A DNA stretch of 36,008 nucleotides from a virus, in UHGV virus genome UHGV-0138922. One strand, 5' to 3'. Positions 1,690 through 27,170 of the stretch are shown here, in pieces (the first letter of the stretch is position 1; every line of letters starts with the position of its first letter). A model generated the notes under the pieces. It was not told the DNA's origin. It did not search any database and saw only the letters and a program-made list of their open reading frames with translations. Both the position numbers and the translations under genes were made by a program.

Positions 1690-3369
1690 ATGAAAACTAA
1701 ACTGTATTCGTATATTCGCTTCTCGTCTATGCGTCAGAATGATGGTTCGAGTTATGAACGACAAATCAGGATGGCTAGAGAGATTGCGGCAAAGTATGAC
1801 CTTGAACTGGTAAATGATTATCAGGATCTGGGTGTATCTGCGTTTAAGGGTGCTAACTCTAAAACAGGGGCGCTATCTCGTTTCCTTGATGCAATTGGTA
1901 GATCCGTTCCTGTTGGTAGCTGGCTATTCATCGAAAACTTGGACCGTTTATCCCGTGCCGATATTGTCAGTGCGCAGGAGTTATTCCTTTCAATCATCCG
2001 TAGGGGAATAACCATTGTTACTGGCATGGATAACAAGATCTACTCGCTGGATACTGTTACCGCTAATCCGATGGACCTGATGTTCTCCATCCTTTTATTC
2101 ATCCGTGGTAATGAGGAAAGCCAGACTAAGCGCAATCGTACTAACTCAAGCGCACTGATTAAGATTAAAGCCCATCAAGAAAATCCCCAGAATCCGGCAG
2201 TGGCAATCGAGGAAGTTGGAAAGAATATGTGGTGGACGGATACCACTTCCGGTTATGTGCTGCCTCATCCGGTGTACTTCCCTGTTGTTCAGGAGATTGT
2301 GGAATTACGGAAGAATGGACGTTCAACCGCCGAAATACTGGATCACCTTAACGAGACTTATACACCGCCACCAGCGGTTAGCAACAAGAAGCATTCAAAA
2401 TGGTCACGGGCAATGGTTGAAAGGTTGTTTCATACCCGCGCTTTGATTGGTATCAAGGAGGTCTCTGTAGATGGCGTTAACTATGAGTTAAAGGATTATT
2501 ACCCTCGTGTTATTGATGACCCTACGTTCTATCACCTTAAGAAAAATATTGGTGCTAGAGCATGGAACTTCGGAGACAAGGAAGAAGTTAAACCGATCCC
2601 CCTGCTTAGTGGTATTGGCCTATTGAAATGTGATCATTGCGGTTGCGCTATGGTTAAAGTGAAGGGAACGAACAAACGTTCTGACCAGTATCGTTATACA
2701 TGTGATGCGACCCGTTCACGTAGACTTGATTGCGAGCATCCAAACTGGAGTTTTCGAGGTGATCAATTAGAGAAAGCTGTATTGCAATTGCTGGCTGATA
2801 AAATCTGGATTGCTGAGGACAAGGCTAATCCGGTTCCGGCGTTGAAAGTACAGGTTGATGAAATATCACGCAAGATTGATAACCTGATTGCCCTTTCTGC
2901 TATGACAGGAGCAACGAAGGAGCTAGCCGATCAGATTACTACCCTCAATAGCGAGCGTGAAACACTCTACAATCAGATCAAGATGGCAGAAGAGGAAATG
3001 TATTCTGTTGACTCTCAAGGCTGGGAGAAGCTCGCAGAATTTGATTTAGAAGATGTTTACAACGAGGAACGACTAAAGGTCCGGTTTAAGATTAAGCAAG
3101 CTCTAAAGCGGATCGGGTGTAGCAGGATTGACAGAAACAAAAACTTGTTTGTACTGGAATACATCGATGGAAAGACCCAGAGAGTTGTAATAGAAAATTC
3201 AAGAGGAACGAGGAAAGGACAAATCTTTGTCGATTTGAAAACTATCAATGATAGGCAGATTCTGGAGAGTAACGGGCTTGTTCTGCATCCATGTTTAGAC
3301 ATGCTGACAGATAAGAACTGGAAACCAGAAGAGGAAATACCAGGTCCATTACAGGAATTTGGAATTTAA
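1690..3369 (+). CDS. Large serine recombinase (phage integrase)
   Basis: N-terminal resolvase-type catalytic motif YSYIRFSSMRQ; long recombinase domain; Cys-rich zinc-ribbon (CDHCGC...YRYTCD...C) and C-terminal coiled coil; ATG 1690 is the likely start (track start 1675 is TTG). Confidence 0.88.
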   Translation: MKTKLYSYIRFSSMRQNDGSSYERQIRMAREIAAKYDLELVNDYQDLGVSAFKGANSKTGALSRFLDAIGRSVPVGSWLFIENLDRLSRADIVSAQELFLSIIRRGITIVTGMDNKIYSLDTVTANPMDLMFSILLFIRGNEESQTKRNRTNSSALIKIKAHQENPQNPAVAIEEVGKNMWWTDTTSGYVLPHPVYFPVVQEIVELRKNGRSTAEILDHLNETYTPPPAVSNKKHSKWSRAMVERLFHTRALIGIKEVSVDGVNYELKDYYPRVIDDPTFYHLKKNIGARAWNFGDKEEVKPIPLLSGIGLLKCDHCGCAMVKVKGTNKRSDQYRYTCDATRSRRLDCEHPNWSFRGDQLEKAVLQLLADKIWIAEDKANPVPALKVQVDEISRKIDNLIALSAMTGATKELADQITTLNSERETLYNQIKMAEEEMYSVDSQGWEKLAEFDLEDVYNEERLKVRFKIKQALKRIGCSRIDRNKNLFVLEYIDGKTQRVVIENSRGTRKGQIFVDLKTINDRQILESNGLVLHPCLDMLTDKNWKPEEEIPGPLQEFGI

Positions 3370-3441: not shown

Positions 3442-4617
3442 TTAGAGAGCCTCTAAGAGAGTATTAAAGTATTCATCCATTAAATCAGGACTGTCGTCAT
3501 CAATACAGAAAAATTCCGGTTTATTGATGCCGTAGAAGTGAGTATGTAGCTTGAATGTATCGTCATCAAATACATCTTTCGGGGATACCCACATATTAGC
3601 CTCGTCCGGTTGATTGGTTAGGTAGTCATAAACCAGTTGCTGTAAGTGTGGTAACTCATCAATAGTCAGAGTTTCCGACCATCCATCCTTGAAATCTTTG
3701 TAGGGTGCTGCATGAGTCTTGAAGCGTTGTTTTACTTCATGCTCTAAATCAACGGCTTTCCAACCATCCTCAAACTCATGAGTAAAGATTAATCTGTGAG
3801 TGAAGTTGCTCTTTCTGGTTTGCTCTCTCATTCGTTCTTCTGGTTTCCGGGTAGTGATTCCAAATTTAATAAATTTGTCATCTAATAATTGAATGTAGAA
3901 ACTAGCCTTACCCTGATAAGTCCGGTTAGACAGTTGCACCAGTTGGTCTTTAATGCAAAGCGGACAAGTGAAAGAATCAGCACATCTTAAATGAGATTCC
4001 CATTCGTGGTTATGTGTCTTGCAATAGGTTTTAAATTTAACATCCTTTAGGTGTGGGGTGTTTATGATGAATCCTTTGAAGGTGTAAGGCGTACTCTCGC
4101 AACGTGCATTGATGATTGTCTCTTTGTCCTTAATAACTTCATCAAAAGTCTTGCCACTTCTTACCCGTTGGGATTTTTCAGCCATACAGATTTTGCAATC
4201 AAAATCGAAATCATCTTTGAGTGCATGTAATAGAGATGGCGTCATGATTTGATTGTGTTCAGGGCACAAAACACGGGCTTTCGTTCTATTTCGCCCTTTC
4301 CATTCTCCTTGCCATCCGAGGAATTTCTTTCCCTTCTCATTACAACGAGATTCCATTTTCAACCATACAGCCTTTTCAGTCTGGAATAACTCACCCCCGT
4401 TAGTATCTTCCAGTTTGCGTAATTTGTAGTCCTTATATTCTTGTGTATCTAAATTGTAGATTCGAAAGTAAGTGTGATTACCCTTCCACGGTAGGATAAA
4501 TCCACCAAATACGAAAGCAGGTTCCAGTTTAGCGATGATTCGTTGTTGGTACTCTTCCGGCGATAAACCGCGAGTTTTCTTAACAAAAGGAATTTCGGCA
4601 GCGTAAGCAAGTTTCAT
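3442..4617 (-). CDS. Zn-ribbon + GIY-YIG (T5orf172-like) nuclease-domain protein, 391 aa
   Basis: GIY-YIG-like motifs SFYIQ...KFGITTR...E; several CxxC pairs; start moved to the internal ATG at 4617, which has an AGAGGAAA ribosome-binding site (track start 4728 lacks one). Confidence 0.6.
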   Translation of the reverse strand: MKLAYAAEIPFVKKTRGLSPEEYQQRIIAKLEPAFVFGGFILPWKGNHTYFRIYNLDTQEYKDYKLRKLEDTNGGELFQTEKAVWLKMESRCNEKGKKFLGWQGEWKGRNRTKARVLCPEHNQIMTPSLLHALKDDFDFDCKICMAEKSQRVRSGKTFDEVIKDKETIINARCESTPYTFKGFIINTPHLKDVKFKTYCKTHNHEWESHLRCADSFTCPLCIKDQLVQLSNRTYQGKASFYIQLLDDKFIKFGITTRKPEERMREQTRKSNFTHRLIFTHEFEDGWKAVDLEHEVKQRFKTHAAPYKDFKDGWSETLTIDELPHLQQLVYDYLTNQPDEANMWVSPKDVFDDDTFKLHTHFYGINKPEFFCIDDDSPDLMDEYFNTLLEAL

Positions 4618-4676
4618 AGTAGTTTCCTCTAAAATAATAAGCTCACTACTATTTATTAGAGAAAATTGTCTTACTA

Positions 4677-4704
4677 TTGCATTCTCTATCTGAATGTGTA
4701 TAAT
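4677..4704 (+). promoter_or_regulatory. Sigma70-like promoter (TTGCAT-N16-TATAAT)
   Basis: Hexamers read directly from sequence, about 65 nt upstream of gene 4772. Confidence 0.45.
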
Positions 4705-4771
4705 ACGCGACCCTAAATCCCAAACCAACCATATTGAGGTTATGCCTATAAGTTAAAAAAGTGAGGTCTAT

Positions 4772-5341
4772 ATGATTCCAGTAATGGCTAAAGATATTGT
4801 TTTTACTCCTAAATCCTCCCGTGCTGTAACTCCATCGGCATTAGAACAACGCATTCTGACTCACATCAAAGAGAAGGACTTACCGTTAGTCTTTCATGGC
4901 TTTCTGGGTGAGTTTAAAGGGCTTCATTCAAGAATTGCTCTTACATGTACCCGATGCGGCAATAGAGCCGACAAATCAGCTACCAACCTGCTTAATGAAG
5001 GTAAACGCTGTGCATGTCTCAAAAGTGATTACTTTCAATATAAAGCGGGTGTGCCTTATCTCTATGTAATGAAATCAGGGGATATTGGTAAATTTGGTGT
5101 TACAAAGTCAATCATCAAGCGACGCATTAATCTGGGTGTACGCAATCCCGGTCATAACTTTGATATTGTCTTTGCTGGTGAAATGCCATCAATGAAACAT
5201 GCTTTAGCCACTGAAAGAGCAATAAAGAGATTACTGGATGTGGGTATAGGCGGGATTGAATACGGCAAAACTGAAACATTCCACTACTGCAATAAATCAC
5301 TAAACAATATAAAGAATATTGCAAGTGTGGAGTGGAACTAA
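4772..5341 (+). CDS. Zn-ribbon + GIY-YIG nuclease-like protein (189 aa), paralog of 3442-4617
   Basis: CxxC...CxC then PYLYVMKSGDIGKFGVTKS...R...E (GIY-YIG spacing); collinear similarity to the 391-aa protein. Confidence 0.65.
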   Translation: MIPVMAKDIVFTPKSSRAVTPSALEQRILTHIKEKDLPLVFHGFLGEFKGLHSRIALTCTRCGNRADKSATNLLNEGKRCACLKSDYFQYKAGVPYLYVMKSGDIGKFGVTKSIIKRRINLGVRNPGHNFDIVFAGEMPSMKHALATERAIKRLLDVGIGGIEYGKTETFHYCNKSLNNIKNIASVEWN

Positions 5342-17865: not shown

Positions 17866-17890
17866 AAAAGCCACCCCGAAGGATGGCTTA
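17866..17890 (-). terminator. Strand-specific rho-independent terminator (UUCG loop)
   Basis: Minus-strand RNA AGCCAUCC-UUCG-GGGUGGCU (one G.U wobble, a C.A mismatch on plus strand) followed by a U-run. Confidence 0.7.
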
Positions 17891-17894
17891 AAAA

Positions 17895-18017
17895 TTATTT
17901 GGTCTTGCGGCCTCGTTTTGCTGTGGCTTTCGCCGTAACTTCTTCTACTTCTGGAATCACTACAGCTTCATGTTCTGGTAGCGGTTCAGGTTCTGGTAAA
18001 TGAAGTTCTTCGTTAGT
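17895..18017 (-). CDS. Putative UGA-readthrough C-terminal extension of major tail protein (40 codons: TNEELHLPEPEPLPEHEAVVIPEVEEVTAKATAKRGRKTK)
   Basis: In frame with the upstream gene after UGA, no internal stop, UAA stop 4 nt before the terminator hairpin; similar in peptide and nucleotide blocks to the capsid extension. Confidence 0.5.
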   Translation of the reverse strand, partial: TNEELHLPEPEPLPEHEAVVIPEVEEVTAKATAKRGRKTK

Positions 18018-18494
18018 TCAACCGCCAGTGGTAAACACTTCCTGTTTCAGCGGAGCACCATCAACAGCAAAGGTAAACTCTTTAGTTACCACTTCTTCAT
18101 CGCCACCGTTCATAGCAACTTTAGAAATAAAGCCGTTGTAAGCGATACGAATACCAGTCTGTTTGCCAGCGTCCACATAATATTCTACTTTGATTTGGCA
18201 GCGAGTGCCGTCTTCGGCAGCTTTTGCGAGCTTCTCGTGTACCGCATCACCTGGGATATAGTTAACGGTCAGAGTCAGATCTTCAACGTTCAGTTTACCA
18301 ACCAGCTTACGGTTATACTGAGAAGAATAGCTCTTAACTTCTACCGTCCCGCGAGACAAAGAATATTCAGGAAAACCAGCGCACTCTTTAATTTCTTCGT
18401 ATGCTTCATCAGCAAGATCGGTATTAGTGGTATCAGCGTGATAGAACAGACTTACCAGACCACCAGTAAAAATATCTTTGAATTGTTGAGACAT
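18018..18494 (-). CDS. Major tail (tube) protein
   Basis: 158 aa, immediately upstream of the G/T chaperones and tape measure gene; paralogous to the N-terminal part of 21920-22753. Confidence 0.6.
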   Translation of the reverse strand: MSQQFKDIFTGGLVSLFYHADTTNTDLADEAYEEIKECAGFPEYSLSRGTVEVKSYSSQYNRKLVGKLNVEDLTLTVNYIPGDAVHEKLAKAAEDGTRCQIKVEYYVDAGKQTGIRIAYNGFISKVAMNGGDEEVVTKEFTFAVDGAPLKQEVFTTGG

Positions 18495-18567
18495 ATAATT
18501 ACCCCTTAATTGAATTTGTTATAACGGGGGAACTAGTCCCCCGACTTTTATTATTTAGTTGATGTTA

Positions 18568-21500
18568 TTATTCGTTTTCTACCCAGATTTCACGCGGAAC
18601 GAAGTTAGAATCTTGAATGTTCTTAAAGATTTTACCGCTAGAGTGAAGTTGGATTTTAATCCATCCACCGTTACCAGCCAGGTAATAGTTCCCGTCATTG
18701 GCAAAACGGATAAAATGGTTAAATCCTGCGGCGTCAAGAATCCACACATTACGGAAGCGGAGATCTTGTGGTAAACCTCCGGTCTGGGTATTACCAGGGA
18801 GAGTACCGGACCAGATTTTAGTACAACCTTTCGTCTTTTTGATATAACGACCGTCAAAGTTACCGTAATCAGTTGGTGTAACTCGACCAGTTACGTTTAC
18901 TGCTTTGTTTGCGGTGATTGCACCGGAAGTAAAACGCATTACTGCCACATTGTTAGCATATACATCTAAAATACCGTCGCCGTTTTGCTTAAAGCCAGTA
19001 TCACTATCACCCAAAACAATTGAGTTGCCACCTAATCCATTAGCAACGTTTACACCAAATGCGCTAATTTGCGGGGTAGTAACCTTACCAGAAACGTTCA
19101 AGTTTTGTGCGTTGATTTGTCCATTTACACTAAACTGAATCGCTGTAGTTCCTGGACCACCTGCACGCTGTGTATAGAAGTGCCAACCGCTTTCATCAGC
19201 CCACTCTAAAACCTGTTTACGATCAGCATTACCCCAAACACGACAGTTAAACGAGGATTGTGCTGTACCTTTACCCCATGTCAATTTACCACCAACTTCA
19301 AAGTCTCCTAAGAAGTTTGCTTTCAATCCACCAGTAGCCATATTACGCTCGGTGCTGAAATGACGTCCTTTGCTATCTTCCACATACAGGACGTTATCAC
19401 GACCGTTACTGCTATCACCCCAATGGTTAAAGCGAATAAAATCGCGGGATTGTCCAGCAAGTCCGGCTTCCATCGTTATATGCTGTCCAGTATTATATAA
19501 GTTACCGCCAGTATAAACATGTCCACCAAATCTAGCTGCTTTGCTTGCACCTTCTAAGGTCAATGCGGATTTATTGGAATCACCACCTAAATTAACGTTA
19601 CCGGAACTAAATTCATAAATGAATGGACGGTTTCCAGTCCAGCTACCCCATTTATCATTTTCGGCAGTAGACAGAAGATAGGTTTTAACACCATCATTTC
19701 GCCAGAATGCACCGTAATTACCGTAAATCATACGATATGCATCAGCGTTAGTTGAAATATATTGCCCGTTGGTATGGACAATTTTTGTTGCACCAACATT
19801 AAGAGAGATCTGACCGCTTTGTTCTAACGCAAAGTTGTTTTTACCAGCATCACTATAGATCTGGAATGCGTTAGTGTCGGCATTACCAAAACCAAACCAT
19901 GATTGACGAACGTTAGCACCGTTACGACGATCCCAATATTCAACAAGGTTACTATTCCCTGTCTGGCGTTCTAAACGAATATTACCACCATCAAGAACAG
20001 CACGACCAGTTTGCAGCGTGCGGTCGGTAATTTTAAGAACTTCGTTTGAGTCAGTAGTGCCAGTAGCTAGGCGGTACATGCTACCCTGAACAGTTTCATG
20101 CCAAATAGTATGACCTGATTTACTACGGAACTGACGAAGATATTTTTTACCATCACCAGTATCATTACACAAACTGATAATATCGTAAGTTCCCTGTGTA
20201 TTATCATCAAAACGAATAGTTCCGGCTTTGTTCTCTGTGTTAAACATGGTAATTACTTTACCATCAGTAACACCAGTGGACGGCTTAACGAGAGTTATTT
20301 CAGGAACGTCATGTACCGTCAGTGTAACATCGTTAGTTTTACCATATTCGACAATAACGTTATCAGTATAACGACCGTAGTTAACGTAGATATCGTAGTT
20401 ATCACCGGAAGTGTTAACCGCAAATACTTGATGAATATTTTTAGCATTTCGACGATAAGCCGCAATACTAACGCCTTTCGGGTTATTGTTACCGGAACGG
20501 ATAACAATTTCTACAAAATCAACCTGATCATAGGAGTTAACGTTATAGCCGTTACCACCGAAGATACGAAGCATTACCATTCGACCATTCTGTGGGATCG
20601 TGGCGGTTGCAATCTTGAAATAACCACGAGAAGCATCACCAGCAGGAACAGACATTTTAACGTTCTTAATGAACATCTGGTCTACTGCGGCCTTGCTATA
20701 CACACCCAATTCATCGGGAGTCGGCTTATCCCCTTCGTGATACATGCGGTAACTGAATCGCTTATTACCATCTTTATCAAAGCCATAGGTTTTAACCTGA
20801 GATGAGCTAGACCCATAATGGAACTCAAAACCGCGACCGTGAGCTTTACCGCCAGAATGAGGAATGTTCAGGATCAAGTTACCCCATCCTTCGGCATTAT
20901 TCGGACGAAACGCACCAAAATAATCAAGGTTACGTGCGCCAGCATCATCAAAGTAGTTAGCTGTTTTGGTTAACAGATACCCGTGATGATAGGTATTGGT
21001 ATTCTTCTTGATGTAAATTGCATCGTTGCTACCTTCAATACCATCAATTCGCTGGTTAGCTGCGGCAATCGCTGCATCGGTGGCAGATTTATTTTGGTCT
21101 ACCTTGTTGTTAATTGCGGTGTGGTTGCTATTAACAGTGCCAGTAAGGTTACTGATTTTAGTATCAGCGTCTTTCTTGTTATTTGCTACCGTGGTTTCAA
21201 TAGCCGATTTGTTGGACGCAACCGTGCTAGTTAAGCTAGAGATCTTGCTATCAGCATCAGACTTGTTAGCGGTAACAGTCTTAGTTAAGTTGCTAACGTT
21301 AGTGTTAGTGGTATCAACTCGGCTATTAATTGCGGTGTTATTGTCAGTAACCGTAGTGGTTAAAGCTGTGATTTTGTTGTCCGCATCTCGTTTGTTATTA
21401 GCTACGGTAGTTTCAATAGCTGATTTGTTTGCCGAAACTGTCCCCGTAAGGTTATTGATCTTGGTGTCAGCGTCGGTTTTATTTGCCGTGACTGTCTGGG

Positions 21501-21846
21501 TTAAGTTACTAACAGTGGTGTTAGTAGCATCAATGCGCTTATTGGTTGCGGTGTCTTTAGTGGTAATGGTGTTATTCAGTTCAGATTTAGCGGTAGCCAG
21601 AGCGTTAGCAGCTTCGGTTTTATTTGCCGCGATAGTAGAATCAGTAGTTTTCTTGTTATTGTCTACTTTTGTGTTTAAAGCATTATGACTTTCAGGAGAA
21701 ACACTTACTTGAACTACTGCGTTATTTTTATCTTTGGTATAAATTACATGGTCTGCCATCTGAATAGCGATTTCACCGACCTGTAATTGTTCCGGCGTTG
21801 GCTTTTTACCAGCCGTCTGTGTGCGTTTAAATTGGATTGATTGCAT
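18568..21846 (-). CDS. Tail fibre protein (1092 aa) with N-terminal Thr/Asn-rich repeat shaft
   Basis: N-terminal KPTPEQLQVGE-type motif, tandem ~66-aa repeats, Gly-rich C-terminal region; GTGAGGTG ribosome-binding site. Confidence 0.7.
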   Translation of the reverse strand: MQSIQFKRTQTAGKKPTPEQLQVGEIAIQMADHVIYTKDKNNAVVQVSVSPESHNALNTKVDNNKKTTDSTIAANKTEAANALATAKSELNNTITTKDTATNKRIDATNTTVSNLTQTVTANKTDADTKINNLTGTVSANKSAIETTVANNKRDADNKITALTTTVTDNNTAINSRVDTTNTNVSNLTKTVTANKSDADSKISSLTSTVASNKSAIETTVANNKKDADTKISNLTGTVNSNHTAINNKVDQNKSATDAAIAAANQRIDGIEGSNDAIYIKKNTNTYHHGYLLTKTANYFDDAGARNLDYFGAFRPNNAEGWGNLILNIPHSGGKAHGRGFEFHYGSSSSQVKTYGFDKDGNKRFSYRMYHEGDKPTPDELGVYSKAAVDQMFIKNVKMSVPAGDASRGYFKIATATIPQNGRMVMLRIFGGNGYNVNSYDQVDFVEIVIRSGNNNPKGVSIAAYRRNAKNIHQVFAVNTSGDNYDIYVNYGRYTDNVIVEYGKTNDVTLTVHDVPEITLVKPSTGVTDGKVITMFNTENKAGTIRFDDNTQGTYDIISLCNDTGDGKKYLRQFRSKSGHTIWHETVQGSMYRLATGTTDSNEVLKITDRTLQTGRAVLDGGNIRLERQTGNSNLVEYWDRRNGANVRQSWFGFGNADTNAFQIYSDAGKNNFALEQSGQISLNVGATKIVHTNGQYISTNADAYRMIYGNYGAFWRNDGVKTYLLSTAENDKWGSWTGNRPFIYEFSSGNVNLGGDSNKSALTLEGASKAARFGGHVYTGGNLYNTGQHITMEAGLAGQSRDFIRFNHWGDSSNGRDNVLYVEDSKGRHFSTERNMATGGLKANFLGDFEVGGKLTWGKGTAQSSFNCRVWGNADRKQVLEWADESGWHFYTQRAGGPGTTAIQFSVNGQINAQNLNVSGKVTTPQISAFGVNVANGLGGNSIVLGDSDTGFKQNGDGILDVYANNVAVMRFTSGAITANKAVNVTGRVTPTDYGNFDGRYIKKTKGCTKIWSGTLPGNTQTGGLPQDLRFRNVWILDAAGFNHFIRFANDGNYYLAGNGGWIKIQLHSSGKIFKNIQDSNFVPREIWVENE
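21140..21565 (-). repeat. Tandem coding repeats (~200 bp unit, ~2 copies, with ~22-codon sub-periodicity) inside the fibre gene
   Basis: Protein repeats VSNLTQTVTANKTDADTKINNLTGTVSANKSAIETTVANNKRDADNKITAL... / VSNLTKTVTANKSDADSKISSLTSTVASNKSAIETTVANNKKDADTKISNL... Confidence 0.7.
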
Positions 21847-21874
21847 CTAATCACCTCACATAAAACAGGAATAA

Positions 21875-21892
21875 GGGAGGCGTTAACCTCCC
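21875..21892 (-). promoter_or_regulatory. Intergenic hairpin (GGGAGG-cgttaa-CCTCCC) upstream of the fibre gene, possible attenuator
   Basis: Palindromic GC stem between the 277-aa gene stop and the fibre ribosome-binding site. Confidence 0.3.
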
Positions 21893-21919
21893 CGCGTCAT
21901 GTTTTATTTAGAGAAGTGA

Positions 21920-22753
21920 TCAGTATTCCCCGAAGTCGATTCTATCAGTCTTAGCAACCGCATTAATTTCGGCTGGCGTTGGCTTCTCATTTGTTGTATA
22001 GACTTTAATCCATTCCGATTTTCCGTTGTCCTGAATATTTCGTACCCGCAAACGTGGAGCACCGGAAGTATTACACGTTAATTGCCATGCGCCATGCTCA
22101 TTAGCTTGAAGATGAATTAACGATGTATCAGCACCATAAGGGTTAGTGCTAGCCGTTCCTTTGTAGGTTACGAAGCGGTTTCCTGTCAGAGATTCACTAT
22201 CAATAGGTCCGGTGAAAGGATTTACACCAGCGCCCAGACCAAAATCACCCTGACGCAAGATCCGGCCTTCGGTTGCAATACCCCTTGCAAGAATCCCGCC
22301 ATCTGGTTCTAGTTTGAATTCCATAGTTACAGCTTTGTTATCACCGCCACGAGTTTTATGGCTAGTGACATAAGCATCATAAATGACATAGTAACCAGTG
22401 TTAGCAGCACTATAGCCAGAGTTCACAACATAGAACATTCTAAAGCGCAAAGGTGTTTTATCCTCTACGGCTTTCATCAACATTGCTTGATGTTCGTCGT
22501 CAAGAACACGGTTTACTGTGAGCGTAGTCGGTTCAAGTTTGCGATAGCCAGCCAGCTTACCAGTCGCATCATGATCATACTCTTCGTAAGTCTCGATCTC
22601 GGTTGATTCTGTCAGCGTAGGAAAGGCTGCGATGTTCTCCATACCACTAAAGCTAGGATCGAAAAAGTCGACCTGATTGTCTAGCTGGTTAGAGATCGAC
22701 ACTTCAACATGCGACCCCGTAAAAATATCTAAGTTATCATGTGTAATATTCAT
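21920..22753 (-). CDS. Tail tube-like protein with extra C-terminal domain (277 aa), paralog of the major tail protein
   Basis: Shares DIFTG, LTLTVN and VDG/EPDG blocks with 18018-18494; C-terminal ~120 aa additional. Confidence 0.55.
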   Translation of the reverse strand: MNITHDNLDIFTGSHVEVSISNQLDNQVDFFDPSFSGMENIAAFPTLTESTEIETYEEYDHDATGKLAGYRKLEPTTLTVNRVLDDEHQAMLMKAVEDKTPLRFRMFYVVNSGYSAANTGYYVIYDAYVTSHKTRGGDNKAVTMEFKLEPDGGILARGIATEGRILRQGDFGLGAGVNPFTGPIDSESLTGNRFVTYKGTASTNPYGADTSLIHLQANEHGAWQLTCNTSGAPRLRVRNIQDNGKSEWIKVYTTNEKPTPAEINAVAKTDRIDFGEY

Positions 22754-22762
22754 TATTACCCC

Positions 22763-23185
22763 TTAAAAACGCGCTAGATAAGAAAATTTAAGACTAAGTG
22801 TCCCAACGATACCCCCATCACTAGAATCATCGTCATAATCGGTATTAGAAGCGACTGGAGTTATATCTGAAATGGAGAAGCCCAAATCTTTAAAACGTGG
22901 GTTATCTGGCTGAATCTGGATTATCTGGCAAATACCCTCATGAATTTTCGTTTCATGAATCTGAGAATATAATTGCATTTCGATAACGCATTCAGCTTGC
23001 ATTGCATTACCACCACGGACCCTAGTGTAAGTCTCATTCATTCCGGTAATCCAACACACCACGTCATCGCTAAAACCAGTTTGAGTTTGTTCTACGTTTA
23101 AAGCCAGACCTAGATCTTGTTCGATAATATCCTGTAAAGCACGTTTAATCTTAAGACGTGGCATATTATTAACGGTAGCGAGCAT
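22763..23185 (-). CDS. Head-tail joining / neck protein (putative)
   Basis: Position between capsid and tail genes; AGGGGGTG ribosome-binding site supports the internal ATG near 23185. Confidence 0.4.
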   Translation of the reverse strand: MLATVNNMPRLKIKRALQDIIEQDLGLALNVEQTQTGFSDDVVCWITGMNETYTRVRGGNAMQAECVIEMQLYSQIHETKIHEGICQIIQIQPDNPRFKDLGFSISDITPVASNTDYDDDSSDGGIVGTLSLKFSYLARF

Positions 23186-23459
23186 GAGCACCCCCTGCTA
23201 AAGTGATAAAGCAATCAGTGGTATTATCACCATTGCGCTTAATGTATTGAACTTTGAAACGCTGACTTTCTACAATGACAATATCACCTTGCTTTAAATC
23301 TCCCTCACGACAGAATAAGAATTCTGTTTCTGTCATTACCCCTTGTTCGTCGGTAGTAGTAATTTCATGGTAAGCACGAATTGATTTACCACCTTCCACC
23401 ACAAAAACAGGAGCACTCTTAAACATTCGATTTAATTGTGATTCTGATAATTTGAACAT
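23169..23459 (-). CDS. Head-tail adaptor / head completion protein (putative)
   Basis: First gene after the capsid terminator; GGGGGTG ribosome-binding site before the ATG. Confidence 0.4.
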   Translation of the reverse strand: MFKLSESQLNRMFKSAPVFVVEGGKSIRAYHEITTTDEQGVMTETEFLFCREGDLKQGDIVIVESQRFKVQYIKRNGDNTTDCFITLAGGAHARYR

Positions 23460-23495
23460 AGTCACCCCCTTTTATGGAGTATTTACATACAAAAA

Positions 23496-23517
23496 AGCCC
23501 CACCGTTAGGCAGGGCT
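23496..23517 (-). terminator. Strand-specific rho-independent terminator
   Basis: Minus-strand RNA AGCCCUGCC-UAAC-GGUGGGGCU with two G.U wobbles, followed by a U-run. Confidence 0.65.
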
Positions 23518-23522
23518 AATTA

Positions 23523-23609
23523 TTATTTTGCTTTCGGCGGGCGACCCGCCTTTTTAGCTGTGGCTTTCACCGTAACTACCGGAATTTCTTCCGGCAATTC
23601 TTCGTTATT
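23523..23609 (-). CDS. Putative UGA-readthrough C-terminal extension of the capsid polyprotein (28 codons: NNEELPEEIPVVTVKATAKKAGRPPKAK)
   Basis: In frame after UGA, UAA stop immediately before the terminator; parallels the major tail extension. Confidence 0.5.
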   Translation of the reverse strand, partial: NNEELPEEIPVVTVKATAKKAGRPPKAK

Positions 23610-25613
23610 TCATTCAGCGCCAATCTGAAGAACTTTCAGAGCTTCCGGCTGAGTAACAACATAATCCAGATCTACCCAGATACGCGGAACGATAGCAGAC
23701 TGTGCACGGTAGGTAGTGTCGTCCATATCCAATTCCAGACCGCCCCACTCACCGATAGTGATGCCGGAGAAGTCACCCAGAACGATGTGATCTGCCGGAA
23801 TAACACCAGAAGTAACTACTTCGTAACCAGCCAGTTTGCCGTTTTCGATGATATAACCGGAAACGCCGTTATCTTTCAGGGTAGATTCCAGTTCGGCAGC
23901 AGTTGCACCGCTCATCGCAAACTTGATCGCCTGAGCAGGAACGCCAGCGTCGGTCAGTTTAGCAATTTCTTTCAGGAAATCTTTGTAAGAGAAAGCAGCT
24001 TTCTTCTCAACGCGGCTAGCGTCTACCAGTTGCTTAACCAGACCAGCCGGACCACGAGCATTTTCTTTGTCAGACAGAATCAGTTGTTCCAGTTTGATAC
24101 GAACAGCTTTGTTAATGTGGTCAGTGATCAGGGTAGCGATACCCGGAACGGTTTTCAGAGACTGACGGCTAATCGGGTTGCCACCAGCGAAAGTCTTAGG
24201 AGACAGTTTCACGTTCGCAAATTCAGCTTTGCTTTCCGGCGCAGCACCGTTTTCATCAACGAAGCCGAAAGCATCAACGCTGGATTTAGTCATTTTTGGA
24301 ATAGCAGTCGGAGAAGTCAAGCCACTATAAACAGTCACACCCAGACGACCCAGAACAGATTCCGGCATCAGCATTTCGATGTAGGATTCAGTCATCAGTT
24401 TTTCGTCGGTGATAGCAGTCAGATCGGCTTTGGTGTTACCAGCAGCAGCAGCACGCATAGCAGCAGCCGGAACGAATACAGAGCCACCACGAGCAGCACG
24501 ACCACGCTGCATAGTTGCAGTAGCAGCCATTGCAGAAAACTCGGCTTCGTTAGCACCCAGAGCTTCACCATCTACCAGAGAGCGAATTACGTTGTTCAGG
24601 TCAAAAGTTTTTTCCATTTTAGAGTCCTTAATTTGTTCGTTATTACGTTGAGCATTGGTAATGTTATTTAGTGCCTTAGTGCGGAATGCTTCCGGCGTCA
24701 TATCTTTAACTGCCAATGCGCGTTTTAATTCTTCGTCGTCAATATTTAGTTCGCGTGCAATTTCGCGAATTTCTAATTCGTCTTCTTCGGAACGTTCAGC
24801 CACTTCAATTTTTTCTTCTTCAACCGGAGCAGCTTCACGTTCTTCTGTCATTTCTTCTTCTTCCCGAACAGTTCCACGATCATCATCAGAACTTTCAGAA
24901 TGTTCAGCGTCTTTTCCGTCTTCGAGATTTTCATTTTCTTCATTCTCTTCAACTTGGCGCTCTTGAGTTTCTTCTACTTCCGGTTCTTTATTTTCTTCTA
25001 CCGGAGTTTCTTCAACCTGAGCGACTTCTTTTTCTTCGTCTTTAACTTGTTCGATTTGTTCTTTAGTCATATCGCGTTTAGCCTCCAAATTAACTGTGAT
25101 AGTATTTAGAGAGCGATTTAGACCGACAGAATCGTCTGCGGGCACAGACACCCATGAAATCTCATGAGGAATCCACTTAGTAACAATCAATTGTCCTTTA
25201 GCGTAATCGATGTGATATTCTTTAATGTCATAACCGACAGAAATTTTTTCCATCGTACCTTCAATGACTTTATTACGAATATCATTAGCCAAAGTACCAT
25301 GCTTAGAGAATTTAACAGTAGCACGGCCTACTTTATCCGCATCGATTCGAGCGTTACAGACAACACCAATGTGATTATCGAAATTATGATTGAACAGCAA
25401 CGGAGCGTTATTATTCAGGCGAGACAGATCAACCGCTTCCGGTGTATGTAACAGAATTTCATCTAATACCACCATCTCTTGATTTTGCTCATCCCAGAAT
25501 TGGCGCTGGTAAGGCTGTTCACTGGAGAAAGCAATTTCAAATTCGTATTGATCGTTATGCCCTTCGTTAATAACTCCACCGTAACCGTTAAGATCGCGGC
25601 GAAATTTAAGCAT
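23610..25613 (-). CDS. Prohead protease - acidic scaffold-like linker - HK97-fold major capsid protein (single 667-aa ORF)
   Basis: N-terminus resembles HK97-type prohead protease (LLFNHNFDNHIG, ISVGYD, HEISWVSVPAD); ~150-aa Glu-rich linker; C-terminal ~330 aa HK97-like capsid domain; AAGGTGA ribosome-binding site. Confidence 0.8.
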   Translation of the reverse strand: MLKFRRDLNGYGGVINEGHNDQYEFEIAFSSEQPYQRQFWDEQNQEMVVLDEILLHTPEAVDLSRLNNNAPLLFNHNFDNHIGVVCNARIDADKVGRATVKFSKHGTLANDIRNKVIEGTMEKISVGYDIKEYHIDYAKGQLIVTKWIPHEISWVSVPADDSVGLNRSLNTITVNLEAKRDMTKEQIEQVKDEEKEVAQVEETPVEENKEPEVEETQERQVEENEENENLEDGKDAEHSESSDDDRGTVREEEEMTEEREAAPVEEEKIEVAERSEEDELEIREIARELNIDDEELKRALAVKDMTPEAFRTKALNNITNAQRNNEQIKDSKMEKTFDLNNVIRSLVDGEALGANEAEFSAMAATATMQRGRAARGGSVFVPAAAMRAAAAGNTKADLTAITDEKLMTESYIEMLMPESVLGRLGVTVYSGLTSPTAIPKMTKSSVDAFGFVDENGAAPESKAEFANVKLSPKTFAGGNPISRQSLKTVPGIATLITDHINKAVRIKLEQLILSDKENARGPAGLVKQLVDASRVEKKAAFSYKDFLKEIAKLTDAGVPAQAIKFAMSGATAAELESTLKDNGVSGYIIENGKLAGYEVVTSGVIPADHIVLGDFSGITIGEWGGLELDMDDTTYRAQSAIVPRIWVDLDYVVTQPEALKVLQIGAE

Positions 25614-25655
25614 TTAATCACCTTTAATTAATTGGGGGCATTGCGCCCCCGTTGG

Positions 25656-27170
25656 TTATTGGGGATCGGCTGGGGAATTTTTTTCTTCACCCTCGCCATT
25701 AACGATAATATTTAGTGCGCTCTTTTCGGCTTGAATCTCTGAGAATACTTTTTCAGGATCATCACCACGTTCAAGAATAACAGCAGTACGTGATTTAAGA
25801 CCATTTTGAATTAAAGCAATCTCGGCGTTTACGTCTTTAATAGGATCGACGGATTCAAAACGCGGACGAATAATAGTAGTGTTATCGATAATATGAGGAA
25901 TTGCAGTAATACGAATCGGAACAATACCACGCGCGGAATAATGGCGTAGATACGCTTCAAAAATTGGCAATACCACTGTTTCAATTAATTTGTTTTGCAG
26001 TGCTTTAATGCGGTTACGCTGAGTTAATTCACCAAAACGTGCGGCTGAGTAGTTGATCTGTGAACAATCTCCTGTTAAGCCCTGTTTGAACACGCCTAAG
26101 CCCATTGATACGCTAGTGAACATCGCATCATTGAAGCTGTTAAAGTCATCGCCATTTTGCGATGATTGAATGCTCTTGATTGTTGCCCCTTCCGGCAATT
26201 CCTGAATAGTACCCGGTGCAAAGTCCTGTACTACTTCCGGCGCTTGATATTGTTCATCCTCTTCACCAGTATCAAAATCGTCACCGGAATCTTTAGGACG
26301 TTCAATAAAGCCCATAGAACTAGCCGCAATACGTTTCTGGACGATCGCGGTTTCGCGGAACGCTTCTTGATGCGCAATATCCTTAATCACTGGCAGGAAG
26401 TCAGTCACACCACGTAAACTTTCCGCGCACAGTGGCTGGTAGTAGTGGCACACCTGAGAAGCATCTACGCGATAATTTTCGCCAGTGTAGGTCTGAGTCA
26501 GTAGATTGATTTTTCTAAACCAGTATGCTACAGGGCGCATTGTGTCTACGTCATACTCAATCCCCTGATAGATCGCACGTTCTTTGCTTATTTCACGACT
26601 AAGCGACCAGTCGCACCTATCAGCAGACAGAATAGAAACTTGTAACTCATTGTTCTCTTTGGTTAAAACGATGAAGCATTCTCCACCCTGAACACGTTCA
26701 GATTCTGCCATTGCCAGCATTTCACGGAAGTTAAAGCGACCGTTGCGAGAGAAGCGTTTAGCACTCTGCGCCCACTTCCAGAAAGCATTCTCGATCTGCT
26801 TATTCAGTGCGGTGTCAAGTTTGCCATTTGATTTAACGATTGATGGTTTCGGATCAAGCCCCGTACCAACAACTTGGTCAACGATATACTGCTTGTATCG
26901 CTTACCTACAGCATTGTTTATAGCCAGAGTACGACCCTGATCATAAAGGCGCTTACCGTTCGATTTGAGAGCCTTATTGAAGGTTCCTGTAATGGTGTCT
27001 TGTTGAAGCTGTCCATCAATGCGATCACCGACTAAGCCCAAAGAACGCTTAGACAAATCTTTCTGGAATTTTTCTACTTGTTTGTCGATAAAGATTTTTT
27101 GTTGTTGCTGGCGGTGATTAGTTTTAACTGGAGTTTCTACCGCCTTTTTGCGTCGAAAAAGATTAAACAT
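25656..27170 (-). CDS. Portal protein
   Basis: 504 aa, between terminase and capsid genes; AAGGGGT ribosome-binding site. Confidence 0.75.
   Translation of the reverse strand: MFNLFRRKKAVETPVKTNHRQQQQKIFIDKQVEKFQKDLSKRSLGLVGDRIDGQLQQDTITGTFNKALKSNGKRLYDQGRTLAINNAVGKRYKQYIVDQVVGTGLDPKPSIVKSNGKLDTALNKQIENAFWKWAQSAKRFSRNGRFNFREMLAMAESERVQGGECFIVLTKENNELQVSILSADRCDWSLSREISKERAIYQGIEYDVDTMRPVAYWFRKINLLTQTYTGENYRVDASQVCHYYQPLCAESLRGVTDFLPVIKDIAHQEAFRETAIVQKRIAASSMGFIERPKDSGDDFDTGEEDEQYQAPEVVQDFAPGTIQELPEGATIKSIQSSQNGDDFNSFNDAMFTSVSMGLGVFKQGLTGDCSQINYSAARFGELTQRNRIKALQNKLIETVVLPIFEAYLRHYSARGIVPIRITAIPHIIDNTTIIRPRFESVDPIKDVNAEIALIQNGLKSRTAVILERGDDPEKVFSEIQAEKSALNIIVNGEGEEKNSPADPQ

Follow-up and report, generated by a model that had tools for sequence, protein, structure and literature searches.

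Capsid and tail tube genes end in UGA and are followed by in-frame extensions

In the present study, we analysed the virus genome UHGV-0138922, a stretch of 36,008 nucleotides (nt) that is referred to below as the window, and found that its major capsid gene and its tail tube (major tail) gene both end in UGA and are both followed, in the same frame (frame 0), by a short open stretch that closes at UAA next to an intrinsic terminator. Readthrough of the UGA on both genes was the best-supported explanation of this arrangement, and we put its probability at about 0.65. The UGA cassettes, which belong to a lineage of E. coli and Salmonella prophages, appear to be the first candidates for programmed readthrough of a stop codon in the structural genes of a tailed DNA phage.

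The elements of the tail site, all on the minus strand, are as follows.

18018..18494 (-), tail tube (major tail) protein gene, 158 amino acids (aa), with TGA at 18020-18018; the open reading frame (ORF) ends ...FTTGG-TGA
18017..18020 (-), candidate leaky stop signal UGA-A, comprising the TGA and the first base of the next codon, ACT; TGA-A is invariant in the extension-bearing relatives
17940..18017 (-), acidic linker of the tail extension, rich in Pro and Glu, 26 codons (TNEELHLPEPEPLPEHEAVVIPEVEE); length variants in relatives stay in frame
17916..17939 (-), core motif VTAKATAK (GTTACGGCGAAAGCCACAGCAAAA), with a second copy after the capsid gene, from the DNA motif search
17898..17915 (-), basic C-terminal tail RGRKTK of the tail extension, read from the sequence
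17895..17897 (-), real stop of the tail extension, TAA, as in 56 of 56 tail instances
17858..17889 (-), intrinsic terminator 3' of the tube gene, 9-bp stem (17889-17868) plus T run, from the terminator scan and RNA folding

The original prediction had described a 158-aa tail ORF that ends in UGA and is followed by 40 in-frame codons, Pro/Glu-rich and then basic, and a UAA. This description was confirmed on the sequence, in which the 40 open frame-0 codons after the TGA encode TNEELHLPEPEPLPEHEAVVIPEVEEVTAKATAKRGRKTK and are closed by the TAA at 17897-17895. The UAA had also been placed 4 nt from the terminator; the adjacency was verified, and the gap was corrected to 5 nt, a distance between the TAA and the stem that was constant in relatives too according to the terminator scan and the alignment. 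The basic tail, RGRKTK in the window, reads RGRKAKN or RSRKAKD in relatives, and the linker matched no Pfam or PHROG domain. The tube protein was identified by the beta-sandwich fold of major tail proteins and by the position of its gene upstream of the G/T chaperones and the tape measure. A PDB sequence search with the tube profile gave no match, and a fold search was used instead.

The capsid gene had been said to have the same arrangement, and it was indeed found to run through TGA, 28 frame-0 codons and TAA TAA into a terminator. Its elements, also on the minus strand, are listed below.

23610..25613 (-), prohead protease-major capsid fusion gene, 667 aa, with TGA at 23612-23610, identified with Pfam and PHROG
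23526..23609 (-), capsid extension, 28 frame-0 codons: linker NNEELPEEIPV, core VTVKATAK (23576-23553) and AT-hook-like basic tail KAGRPPKAK
23520..23525 (-), tandem stops TAA TAA closing the capsid extension
23486..23517 (-), intrinsic terminator 3' of the capsid gene, 9-bp stem (23517-23496) plus T run, from the terminator scan and RNA folding

The fusion was recognised by Peptidase_S78 (PF04586, E 1e-9) and Phage_capsid (PF05065, E 8e-27), both past the Pfam cut-offs and on one polypeptide, and the gene product matched phrog_617 with an E-value of 1e-92. The sequence that follows the TGA is NNEELPEEIPVVTVKATAKKAGRPPKAK, behind which lie the TAA TAA and the terminator. No Pfam or PHROG domain past threshold was found in the capsid extension, which consists of a low-complexity acidic/Pro linker and a basic tail. 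The tail and capsid extensions have an NEEL start, a VT(A/V)KATAK core and a basic end in common. At the DNA level they have in common a 20-nt stretch with one mismatch, of which the DNA motif search found two copies in the window where none was expected by chance.

The window comprises most of a temperate siphophage, with a serine recombinase, a gpA-type terminase, a lambda-type portal, Rha, an M15 endolysin, a J-like tip and a T4 gp34-like fibre. Among its 36 gene-like ORFs, 31 end in TAA and five in TGA. The capsid and tube genes both end in TGA-A, and they were the only two ORFs of the window that were then followed by long, mutually similar frame-0 stretches. Each of the two terminators is located within the late operon and directly follows one of the two genes whose products are needed in the largest amounts.

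An annotated terminator of the T4-like phage vB_EcoM_G2248 (MK327932.1, 104329-104360) had the same 32 nt as the terminator of the tube gene (17858-17889, minus strand), with 100% identity. When the region was compared with phage isolates by megablast, this 32-nt match to a T4-like phage was the only one returned. Together with the gp34/gp38-like fibre modules, the identity hints at exchange with T-even phages.

Frame and stop are conserved among relatives

Relatives were collected from IMG/VR with the tube protein (24 loci) and with the core DNA motif (52 stretches), from metagenomes with the core motif (60 stretches, about 25 of them from this phage group), and from E. coli and Salmonella assemblies. 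The anatomy recurred across these relatives, and frame and stop were strictly conserved. TGA followed by A (TGA ACT or TGA AAT) stood at the junction in 56/56 tail and 72/72 capsid instances, corresponding to 19 and 30 distinct variants, respectively. The extension always closed with TAA at the tail site, and with TAA, or TGA-TAA in one allele, at the capsid site. The 30 distinct capsid variants (28-45 codons) were all in frame after the TGA, and frames +1 and +2 contained 1-7 stops each in all 19 tail and 30 capsid variants. The core VT(A/V)KATAK was kept in all extension-bearing relatives.

The frame was conserved in spite of repeated changes in length. The linker comprises 26, 24 or 21 codons at the tail site and 11, 18, 19 or 27 codons at the capsid site, and five gene-to-motif spacings were found for the tail (87-102 nt) and six for the capsid (51-99 nt), with all differences being multiples of 3. 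In a frame-agnostic check, a marker peptide of the gene body was sought in all three possible frames, with the motif as the reference, and it lay in the frame of the core motif in 67/67 distinct sequences (27 tail, 40 capsid). Conservation of the frame started directly after the TGA, indels in the first codons included. At least 41 substitutions were visible in the tail extension and at least 73 in the capsid extension; about 4.4% of the possible single-base changes create a stop, and the chance of finding no in-frame stop given those substitutions was roughly 0.16 x 0.04. The cassette was also found after the TGA on three different capsid C-termini, namely ...ALKVLHISAE, ...ALTVVQKK(S/V)D and the Salmonella ...LRVMKAASE, and the C-terminal region of the second of these capsids is only about 42% identical to that of the window. 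The original prediction had proposed an alignment of relatives for signs that the extension is kept in frame under purifying selection. The first part held, with no stop or frame change in the E. coli-type extensions; with regard to the second, pN/pS was only moderately below 1 (0.38 for the tail and 0.69 for the capsid).

A 198-aa protein with W at the junction (P0001) was considered as a naturally fused variant and rejected, because the DNA of its contig reads TGA and the W is thus an artefact of the gene caller. A protein search with the capsid C-terminus joined through W to the extension returned a capsid fragment only.

Relatives without the extension and with fused basic tails

Tube genes that lack the extension were found to end in ...VFSAE TAA TAA or ...EIFGIV TAA, 7 nt from the terminator (L081, L082 and L148), and phage DCP80 has TAA at the end of both its tube and its capsid gene. 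Outside the extension-bearing alleles, TGA was found on the Edwardsiella capsid gene only. These results indicated that the choice of stop tracks the extension, because the relatives without it end in TAA directly at the terminator.

Other relatives carry related peptides as a fused part of the protein. The Edwardsiella tarda tube protein ends in ...PDAPLATYHMNVIPEAVAAKEK before its stop, with no internal stop, and in the alignment its VIPE...V.AK segment corresponds to E. coli VVIPEVEEVTAK, encoded by different synonymous codons. In Salmonella, one capsid gene (L153) ends in the fused form ...AASE-TRVKK and another (L084) reads ...AASE-TGA-TPVEPSEPLPDNGESETPSVTAKATKRGRKPKE (TPVEP...), each followed by a stop; the next codon after AASE or after the TGA is ACT in both. 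The fused ends of further Salmonella capsid proteins are ...TAVAKAK (L151/L152), ...APVAKAK, ...APAGRSK and ...AEARSK, and those of Salmonella tube proteins are ...GLMGRK, ...GLSARK, ...ALGARK and ...SAAARK. With such fused ends on the capsid and tube proteins of Salmonella and on the tube protein of Edwardsiella, the ancestral state of the lineage seems to be a short basic C-terminal tail on both proteins. A long acidic spacer and a basic tail are instead placed behind UGA in the E. coli group and in some Salmonella phages.

Proposed readthrough of the UGA and its products

The comparison of relatives supports the original prediction of an extension behind a leaky UGA. According to the proposed mechanism, most ribosomes would terminate at the weak UGA-A that ends the capsid and tube genes, and a small fraction would decode the UGA by near-cognate Trp-tRNA(Trp) in competition with RF2, as in Qbeta A1. 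The latter would go on for 28-45 codons to the strong TAA next to the terminator. The predicted junctions are ...QEVFTTGG-W-TNEELHLPEPEPLPEHEAVVIPEVEEVTAK for the tail and ...VLQIGAE-W-NNEELPEEIPVVTVK for the capsid. The products would be minor tube and capsid subunits with a C-terminal appendage (+4.5 kDa and +3 kDa, respectively), composed of a disordered acidic Pro/Glu-rich spacer, VTAKATAK and a Lys/Arg-rich tail, which resembles an AT-hook in some alleles. It is from sequence that we infer the readthrough itself, its level, the incorporation of the products into virions and their function. In E. coli K-12, UGA readthrough via Trp-tRNA(Trp) amounts to about 2% at 37 °C and about 4% at 25 °C, and it varies with temperature and cyclic AMP (cAMP) (PMC10570021). 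Readthrough of 1-4% would give from a few to about 15 extended subunits per T=7 head and a few per tube of about 180-240 subunits.

In HK97-fold coat proteins, such as those of T7 and P22, the C-terminus is external. Among tube proteins, lambda gpV and T5 pb6 have C-terminal domains that protrude outward (PMC8718954). A 277-aa paralogue of the tube protein in the window also has an extra domain at exactly this C-terminal position. Because the C-termini of HK97-fold capsid and siphophage tube proteins point outward, cationic tethers would be displayed on both head and tail. By analogy, the extensions are probably surface tethers, and weak binding to polyanionic surfaces (cell envelope, capsule or DNA), like that of the Ig-like domains added by frameshifting, would be a reasonable guess at their role.

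Other ways of decoding the UGA were considered and rejected. For a suppressor tRNA, the only tRNA-like call of ARAGORN in the window was a doubtful 91-nt tRNA-Glu; for an alternative genetic code, the long uninterrupted ORFs fit the standard code. The tRNA-Glu(UUC) call (22908-22998, plus strand, 91 nt) lies antisense within a 142-aa head-tail ORF and is probably spurious. The order of an acidic, Pro-rich part and a basic part also resembles TonB, and BLASTP against an approximate, memory-typed TonB sequence showed no significant similarity; the likeness was compositional only.

Comparison with known recoding systems

In tailed phages, ribosomal frameshifting is known to yield capsid and tail proteins in a long and a short form. 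To our knowledge, stop-codon readthrough is a textbook source of structural long forms only for the RNA phage Qbeta. The original prediction had been made without awareness of an earlier description, and our full-text literature search found no report of stop-codon readthrough in the structural genes of a tailed phage. A 2016 review of recoding lists only frameshifting for these structural long forms (PMC5009743). The route had also been said to differ from -1 frameshifting, which was borne out, because the extension lies in frame 0 and could be reached without a slippery site.

In Qbeta, the leaky UGA of the coat gene is read by tRNA-Trp at low frequency, and the product A1, a minor form of the coat protein with a C-terminal extension, is located on the surface of the virion (PMC6526423). 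The likeness to our case, in which the UGA is a candidate leaky stop, lies in an E. coli phage with a leaky UGA on a coat gene and an extension that starts with a Pro-rich, polyproline-II-type segment (PMC6526423). As in Qbeta, a frame-0 ORF leads from the UGA to a second efficient stop, and the stop, its context and the frame are conserved. Qbeta is a single-stranded RNA levivirus whose readthrough domain of about 196 aa is folded and essential for infectivity, whereas the phage described here is a temperate siphophage with double-stranded DNA, whose predicted low-complexity extensions of 28-45 aa represent one cassette on two genes.

The frameshifting phages offer likenesses of another kind. 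In the Listeria phages PSA, A118 and A500, long forms of the capsid (Cps) and the major tail protein (Tsh) arise by recoding at the 3' end, and the tsh shift site abuts a UGA (PMC5009743). In both cases, in ours by prediction, the two major structural genes of one siphophage have a recoded, C-terminally extended second product. The Listeria phages use a +1 or -1 frameshift at CCC_UGA or at slippery sites, whereas the extensions described here are in frame 0 and readthrough of the stop suffices; unlike the Listeria pair as described, our two extensions are also homologous to each other. In T7 and T3, recoding close to the end of the major capsid gene yields a minor capsid protein, 10B beside 10A (PMC5009743). 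It differs from the present case in that -1 frameshifting acts on one gene only and the extension is unrelated. The likeness is that the 10B extension ends shortly before the post-capsid terminator, which is T-phi in T7, and is surface exposed, as exploited in the use of 10B for display. Ig-like or FN3 domains are found at the C-terminus of tube proteins in SPP1 gp17.1*, lambda gpV and T5 pb6, the SPP1 protein being a recoded long form (PMC5009743, PMC8718954). Those appendages are folded, in contrast to the predicted disordered acidic spacer and cationic tip, in which no domain was detected. Compared with the frameshifted long forms as a group, the present sites have in common their place at the 3' end of a capsid or tail gene, and they show neither a +1/-1 frame with a slippery site nor a folded Ig/FN3 domain.

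Contrary evidence and alternative explanations

Several observations weigh against readthrough as the full account of these regions. The pN/pS ratio was higher in the extension than in the adjacent gene body (0.38 vs 0.16 for the tail; 0.69 vs 0.44 for the capsid), indicating weak purifying selection, and synonymous divergence was 0.15 and 0.22 in the extensions vs 0.32 and 0.37 in the gene bodies, that is, about half. Because pN/pS lies only slightly below 1 and the low synonymous divergence confounds it, our conclusion rests on the frame and indel evidence; the low divergence also points to nucleotide-level constraint or recombinational spread. A hairpin in the capsid extension, CUUCCCCC-GAUUU-GGGGGAAG in E. 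coli, is replaced by CUCUCCCC-GAUAAU-GGGGAGAG in Salmonella (L084, about 3093-3200), an apparent compensatory change. The Edwardsiella capsid gene (L079, 2780-2860) ends in ...LVKQG-TGA and has a related peptide, (V/M)IPTGREEVSVKSGRKPKTDN, in the -1 frame, with a GTG overlapping the stop (GGGTGA); this could reflect frameshifting, reinitiation or decay. The capsid 3' region of DCP80 (L001, 3566-3660) consists of a hairpin (GGAGAGAGCAATCTCTCC) and a basic-peptide-like stretch that is interrupted by three stops and may be a degraded cassette. Readthrough is thus not universal in the wider family, given the -1-frame peptide of Edwardsiella and the three stops of DCP80. With regard to the peptide itself, AT_hook (PF02178) matched the extension at E-values of 0.027-0.081 and 13-15 bits, below the cut-off of 17.4, and only in the ...KK(A/V)GRPPKAK alleles; the match was absent for the ...KKQRKTKE alleles and for the tail ...KRGRKAKN. 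UGA readthrough is also probably lower in natural E. coli isolates than in K-12.

According to the original prediction, nucleotide conservation combined with stops or frame changes would point to a cis-acting element. No such stops or frame changes were found among the extension variants; the halved synonymous divergence does suggest that nucleotide-level constraint or recombination is acting as well. One explanation, which we regard as unlikely, is that the 3' regions are mainly RNA elements (stabilising hairpins, a module upstream of the terminator or a small RNA derived from the 3' untranslated region) and that the open frame is a by-product. Apart from the low synonymous divergence, it is favoured by the nearly invariant core GTTACGGCGAAAGCCACA, which can form a GGC-GAAA-GCC mini-hairpin, by the covarying capsid hairpins, which include a GGYGGG-NCG-YCCRCC hairpin with GTG..CCA covarying with GCG..CCG, and by RNA folding, in which the short capsid extension with its terminator folded far better than shuffled sequences (z -4.3). 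Core and terminator were moreover duplicated together between the capsid and tail sites, which in many relatives have even the terminator in common, and this shared terminator supports recombinational homogenisation. An RNA element requires neither a frame kept over 11 spacings, nor a TGA at the junction, nor the closure of the other two frames. The tail extension region showed no significant structure beyond the terminator (z -1.7), and an Rfam scan of 17000-26000 in E-value mode found no family, with a chance match to a small nucleolar RNA only. Salmonella and Edwardsiella also encode related peptides as a fused part of the protein, in codons that differ synonymously. Such an element can coexist with readthrough and does not replace it: an added RNA-level role is possible, and the extension region may either have an RNA function of its own or be a cassette that was spread or homogenised by recombination. 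That the extension is a decaying relic of an ancestral fused tail, cut off by a nonsense mutation, appears slightly less likely still. The fused tails of relatives, the weak selection on the extension and the three stops in the equivalent capsid region of DCP80 fit this account; it requires, however, a nonsense mutation to TGA at the junction of two separate genes, and none of the 49 distinct variants had a stop or a frameshift despite a synonymous divergence of 0.32-0.37 in the gene bodies and many in-frame indels. The in-frame recombination of the cassette onto different capsid alleles also argues against decay.

Readthrough could also be mainly regulatory, with a ribosome that stops 5 nt before the stem blocking the hairpin, so that a few percent of the transcripts enter the downstream genes for minor structural proteins. 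The extension stop indeed lies at a constant 5 nt from the 9-bp stem at both sites in all relatives, no promoter-like site was found by the terminator/promoter scan between either terminator and the next minus-strand gene, and both terminators follow the most-needed genes within the late operon. This account is wholly inferential, though, and the sole stop of the extension-less relatives lies 7-19 nt from the hairpin while downstream expression is needed all the same. Nor does regulation call for a conserved peptide motif, which is found fused elsewhere, and we consider this account about as improbable as a purely RNA-based one. A combination of both functions is less probable again: in such a portable dual module, readthrough would supply the tethers, and the ribosome parked 5 nt from the stem would block the hairpin, so that leakiness would set the continuation of the late transcript into the minor-protein genes. 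If true, the module would link transcription antitermination to the leakiness of a stop codon and thereby act as a stoichiometry controller. Separate translation of the extension as a small peptide, by an internal start or reinitiation, is very unlikely. The Edwardsiella GTG that overlaps the TGA (GTGA) is a classic layout for coupling, and the tail extension has an in-frame GTG (V20), but no conserved ATG, GTG or TTG was found at or near the junction in the E. coli and Salmonella sequences, the one TTG of the long capsid linker is replaced by TCG in L020, and the frame is kept from the first codon after the TGA, indels there included. For selenocysteine insertion via a downstream SECIS hairpin, there are a UGA codon, hosts with the selenocysteine machinery and hairpins 13-22 nt downstream in the capsid variants. 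The tail site has no conserved hairpin, however, the position and loop of the capsid hairpin differ between alleles, Rfam gave no match, and the capsid-extension hairpins are presumably unlike the fdhF-type loop bound by SelB; we regard this explanation as extremely improbable. Collectively, these comparisons left readthrough of the UGA as the preferred explanation.

Distribution of the prophage group and neighbouring genes

The tube-gene region was present in 54 of the 5,426 complete E. coli genomes (about 1%), in which the PGAP annotation ended the tube protein at the TGA and left the extension region unannotated; E. coli E275a (NZ_CP035865) is one carrier strain. The nearest phage isolate was DCP80, with 43% amino-acid identity, and the prophage group itself had no isolate in the phage collection. 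DCP80 is filed under Straboviridae/Tevenvirinae, yet it has a capsid-tube-tape-measure module of the siphophage type in this region. A profile search of genome contigs with the tube-protein alignment gave no match. A metagenome contig of 143 kb (L119; ERZ781272 NODE-77) carries both extensions in a form identical to the window, including the rare tail allele ...HLPEPEPLPE...RGRKTK, and is probably the same prophage in a chromosomal context.

Two chaperone-like ORFs lie at 17126-17814 on the minus strand, one of 102 aa with a weak match to Phage_TAC_13 and one of 116 aa with a weak match to Phage_tail_T. They are separated by a TAA and a 29-nt gap, unlike the usual overlapping G/GT layout with its -1 frameshift, and the gene calls for the second range from 76 to 123 aa among relatives. 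The 277-aa protein encoded at 21920-22753 (minus strand) and the 158-aa tube protein are paralogues (31% identity over 155 aa, E 7e-19). The longer one also matches phrog_158, and its extra C-terminal domain of about 115 aa is joined exactly at the end point of the tube protein. The gene lies upstream of that for a 1092-aa gp34-like fibre, so the tail module contains two tube-like proteins, of which the 277-aa paralogue may form a fibre-bearing ring.

The position of a gene with a CapR/DUF723 domain varies among relatives, in which it follows the portal, the capsid terminator or the tube terminator (L081, 644-1666; L151, 2108-3157; L152, 1686-3146; L086/L087, 9618-10637). In L151/L152 and L086/L087, the stretch from the terminator to the gene contains a TTGACA-like hexamer. 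The window has two CapR-domain ORFs near the recombinase end (3442-4728 and 4772-5341). Judging by these positions, the gene appears to behave like a mobile moron.

Implications for tailed phages

If true, the readthrough of UGA on capsid and tube genes would represent a third recoding route in the structural biology of tailed phages, and annotation pipelines would systematically miss such products. Head and tail alike would also have a natural display site of low copy number that could be tuned. Since temperature and cAMP alter the UGA readthrough of E. coli (PMC10570021), the composition of the virion surface could depend on the physiology of the host.

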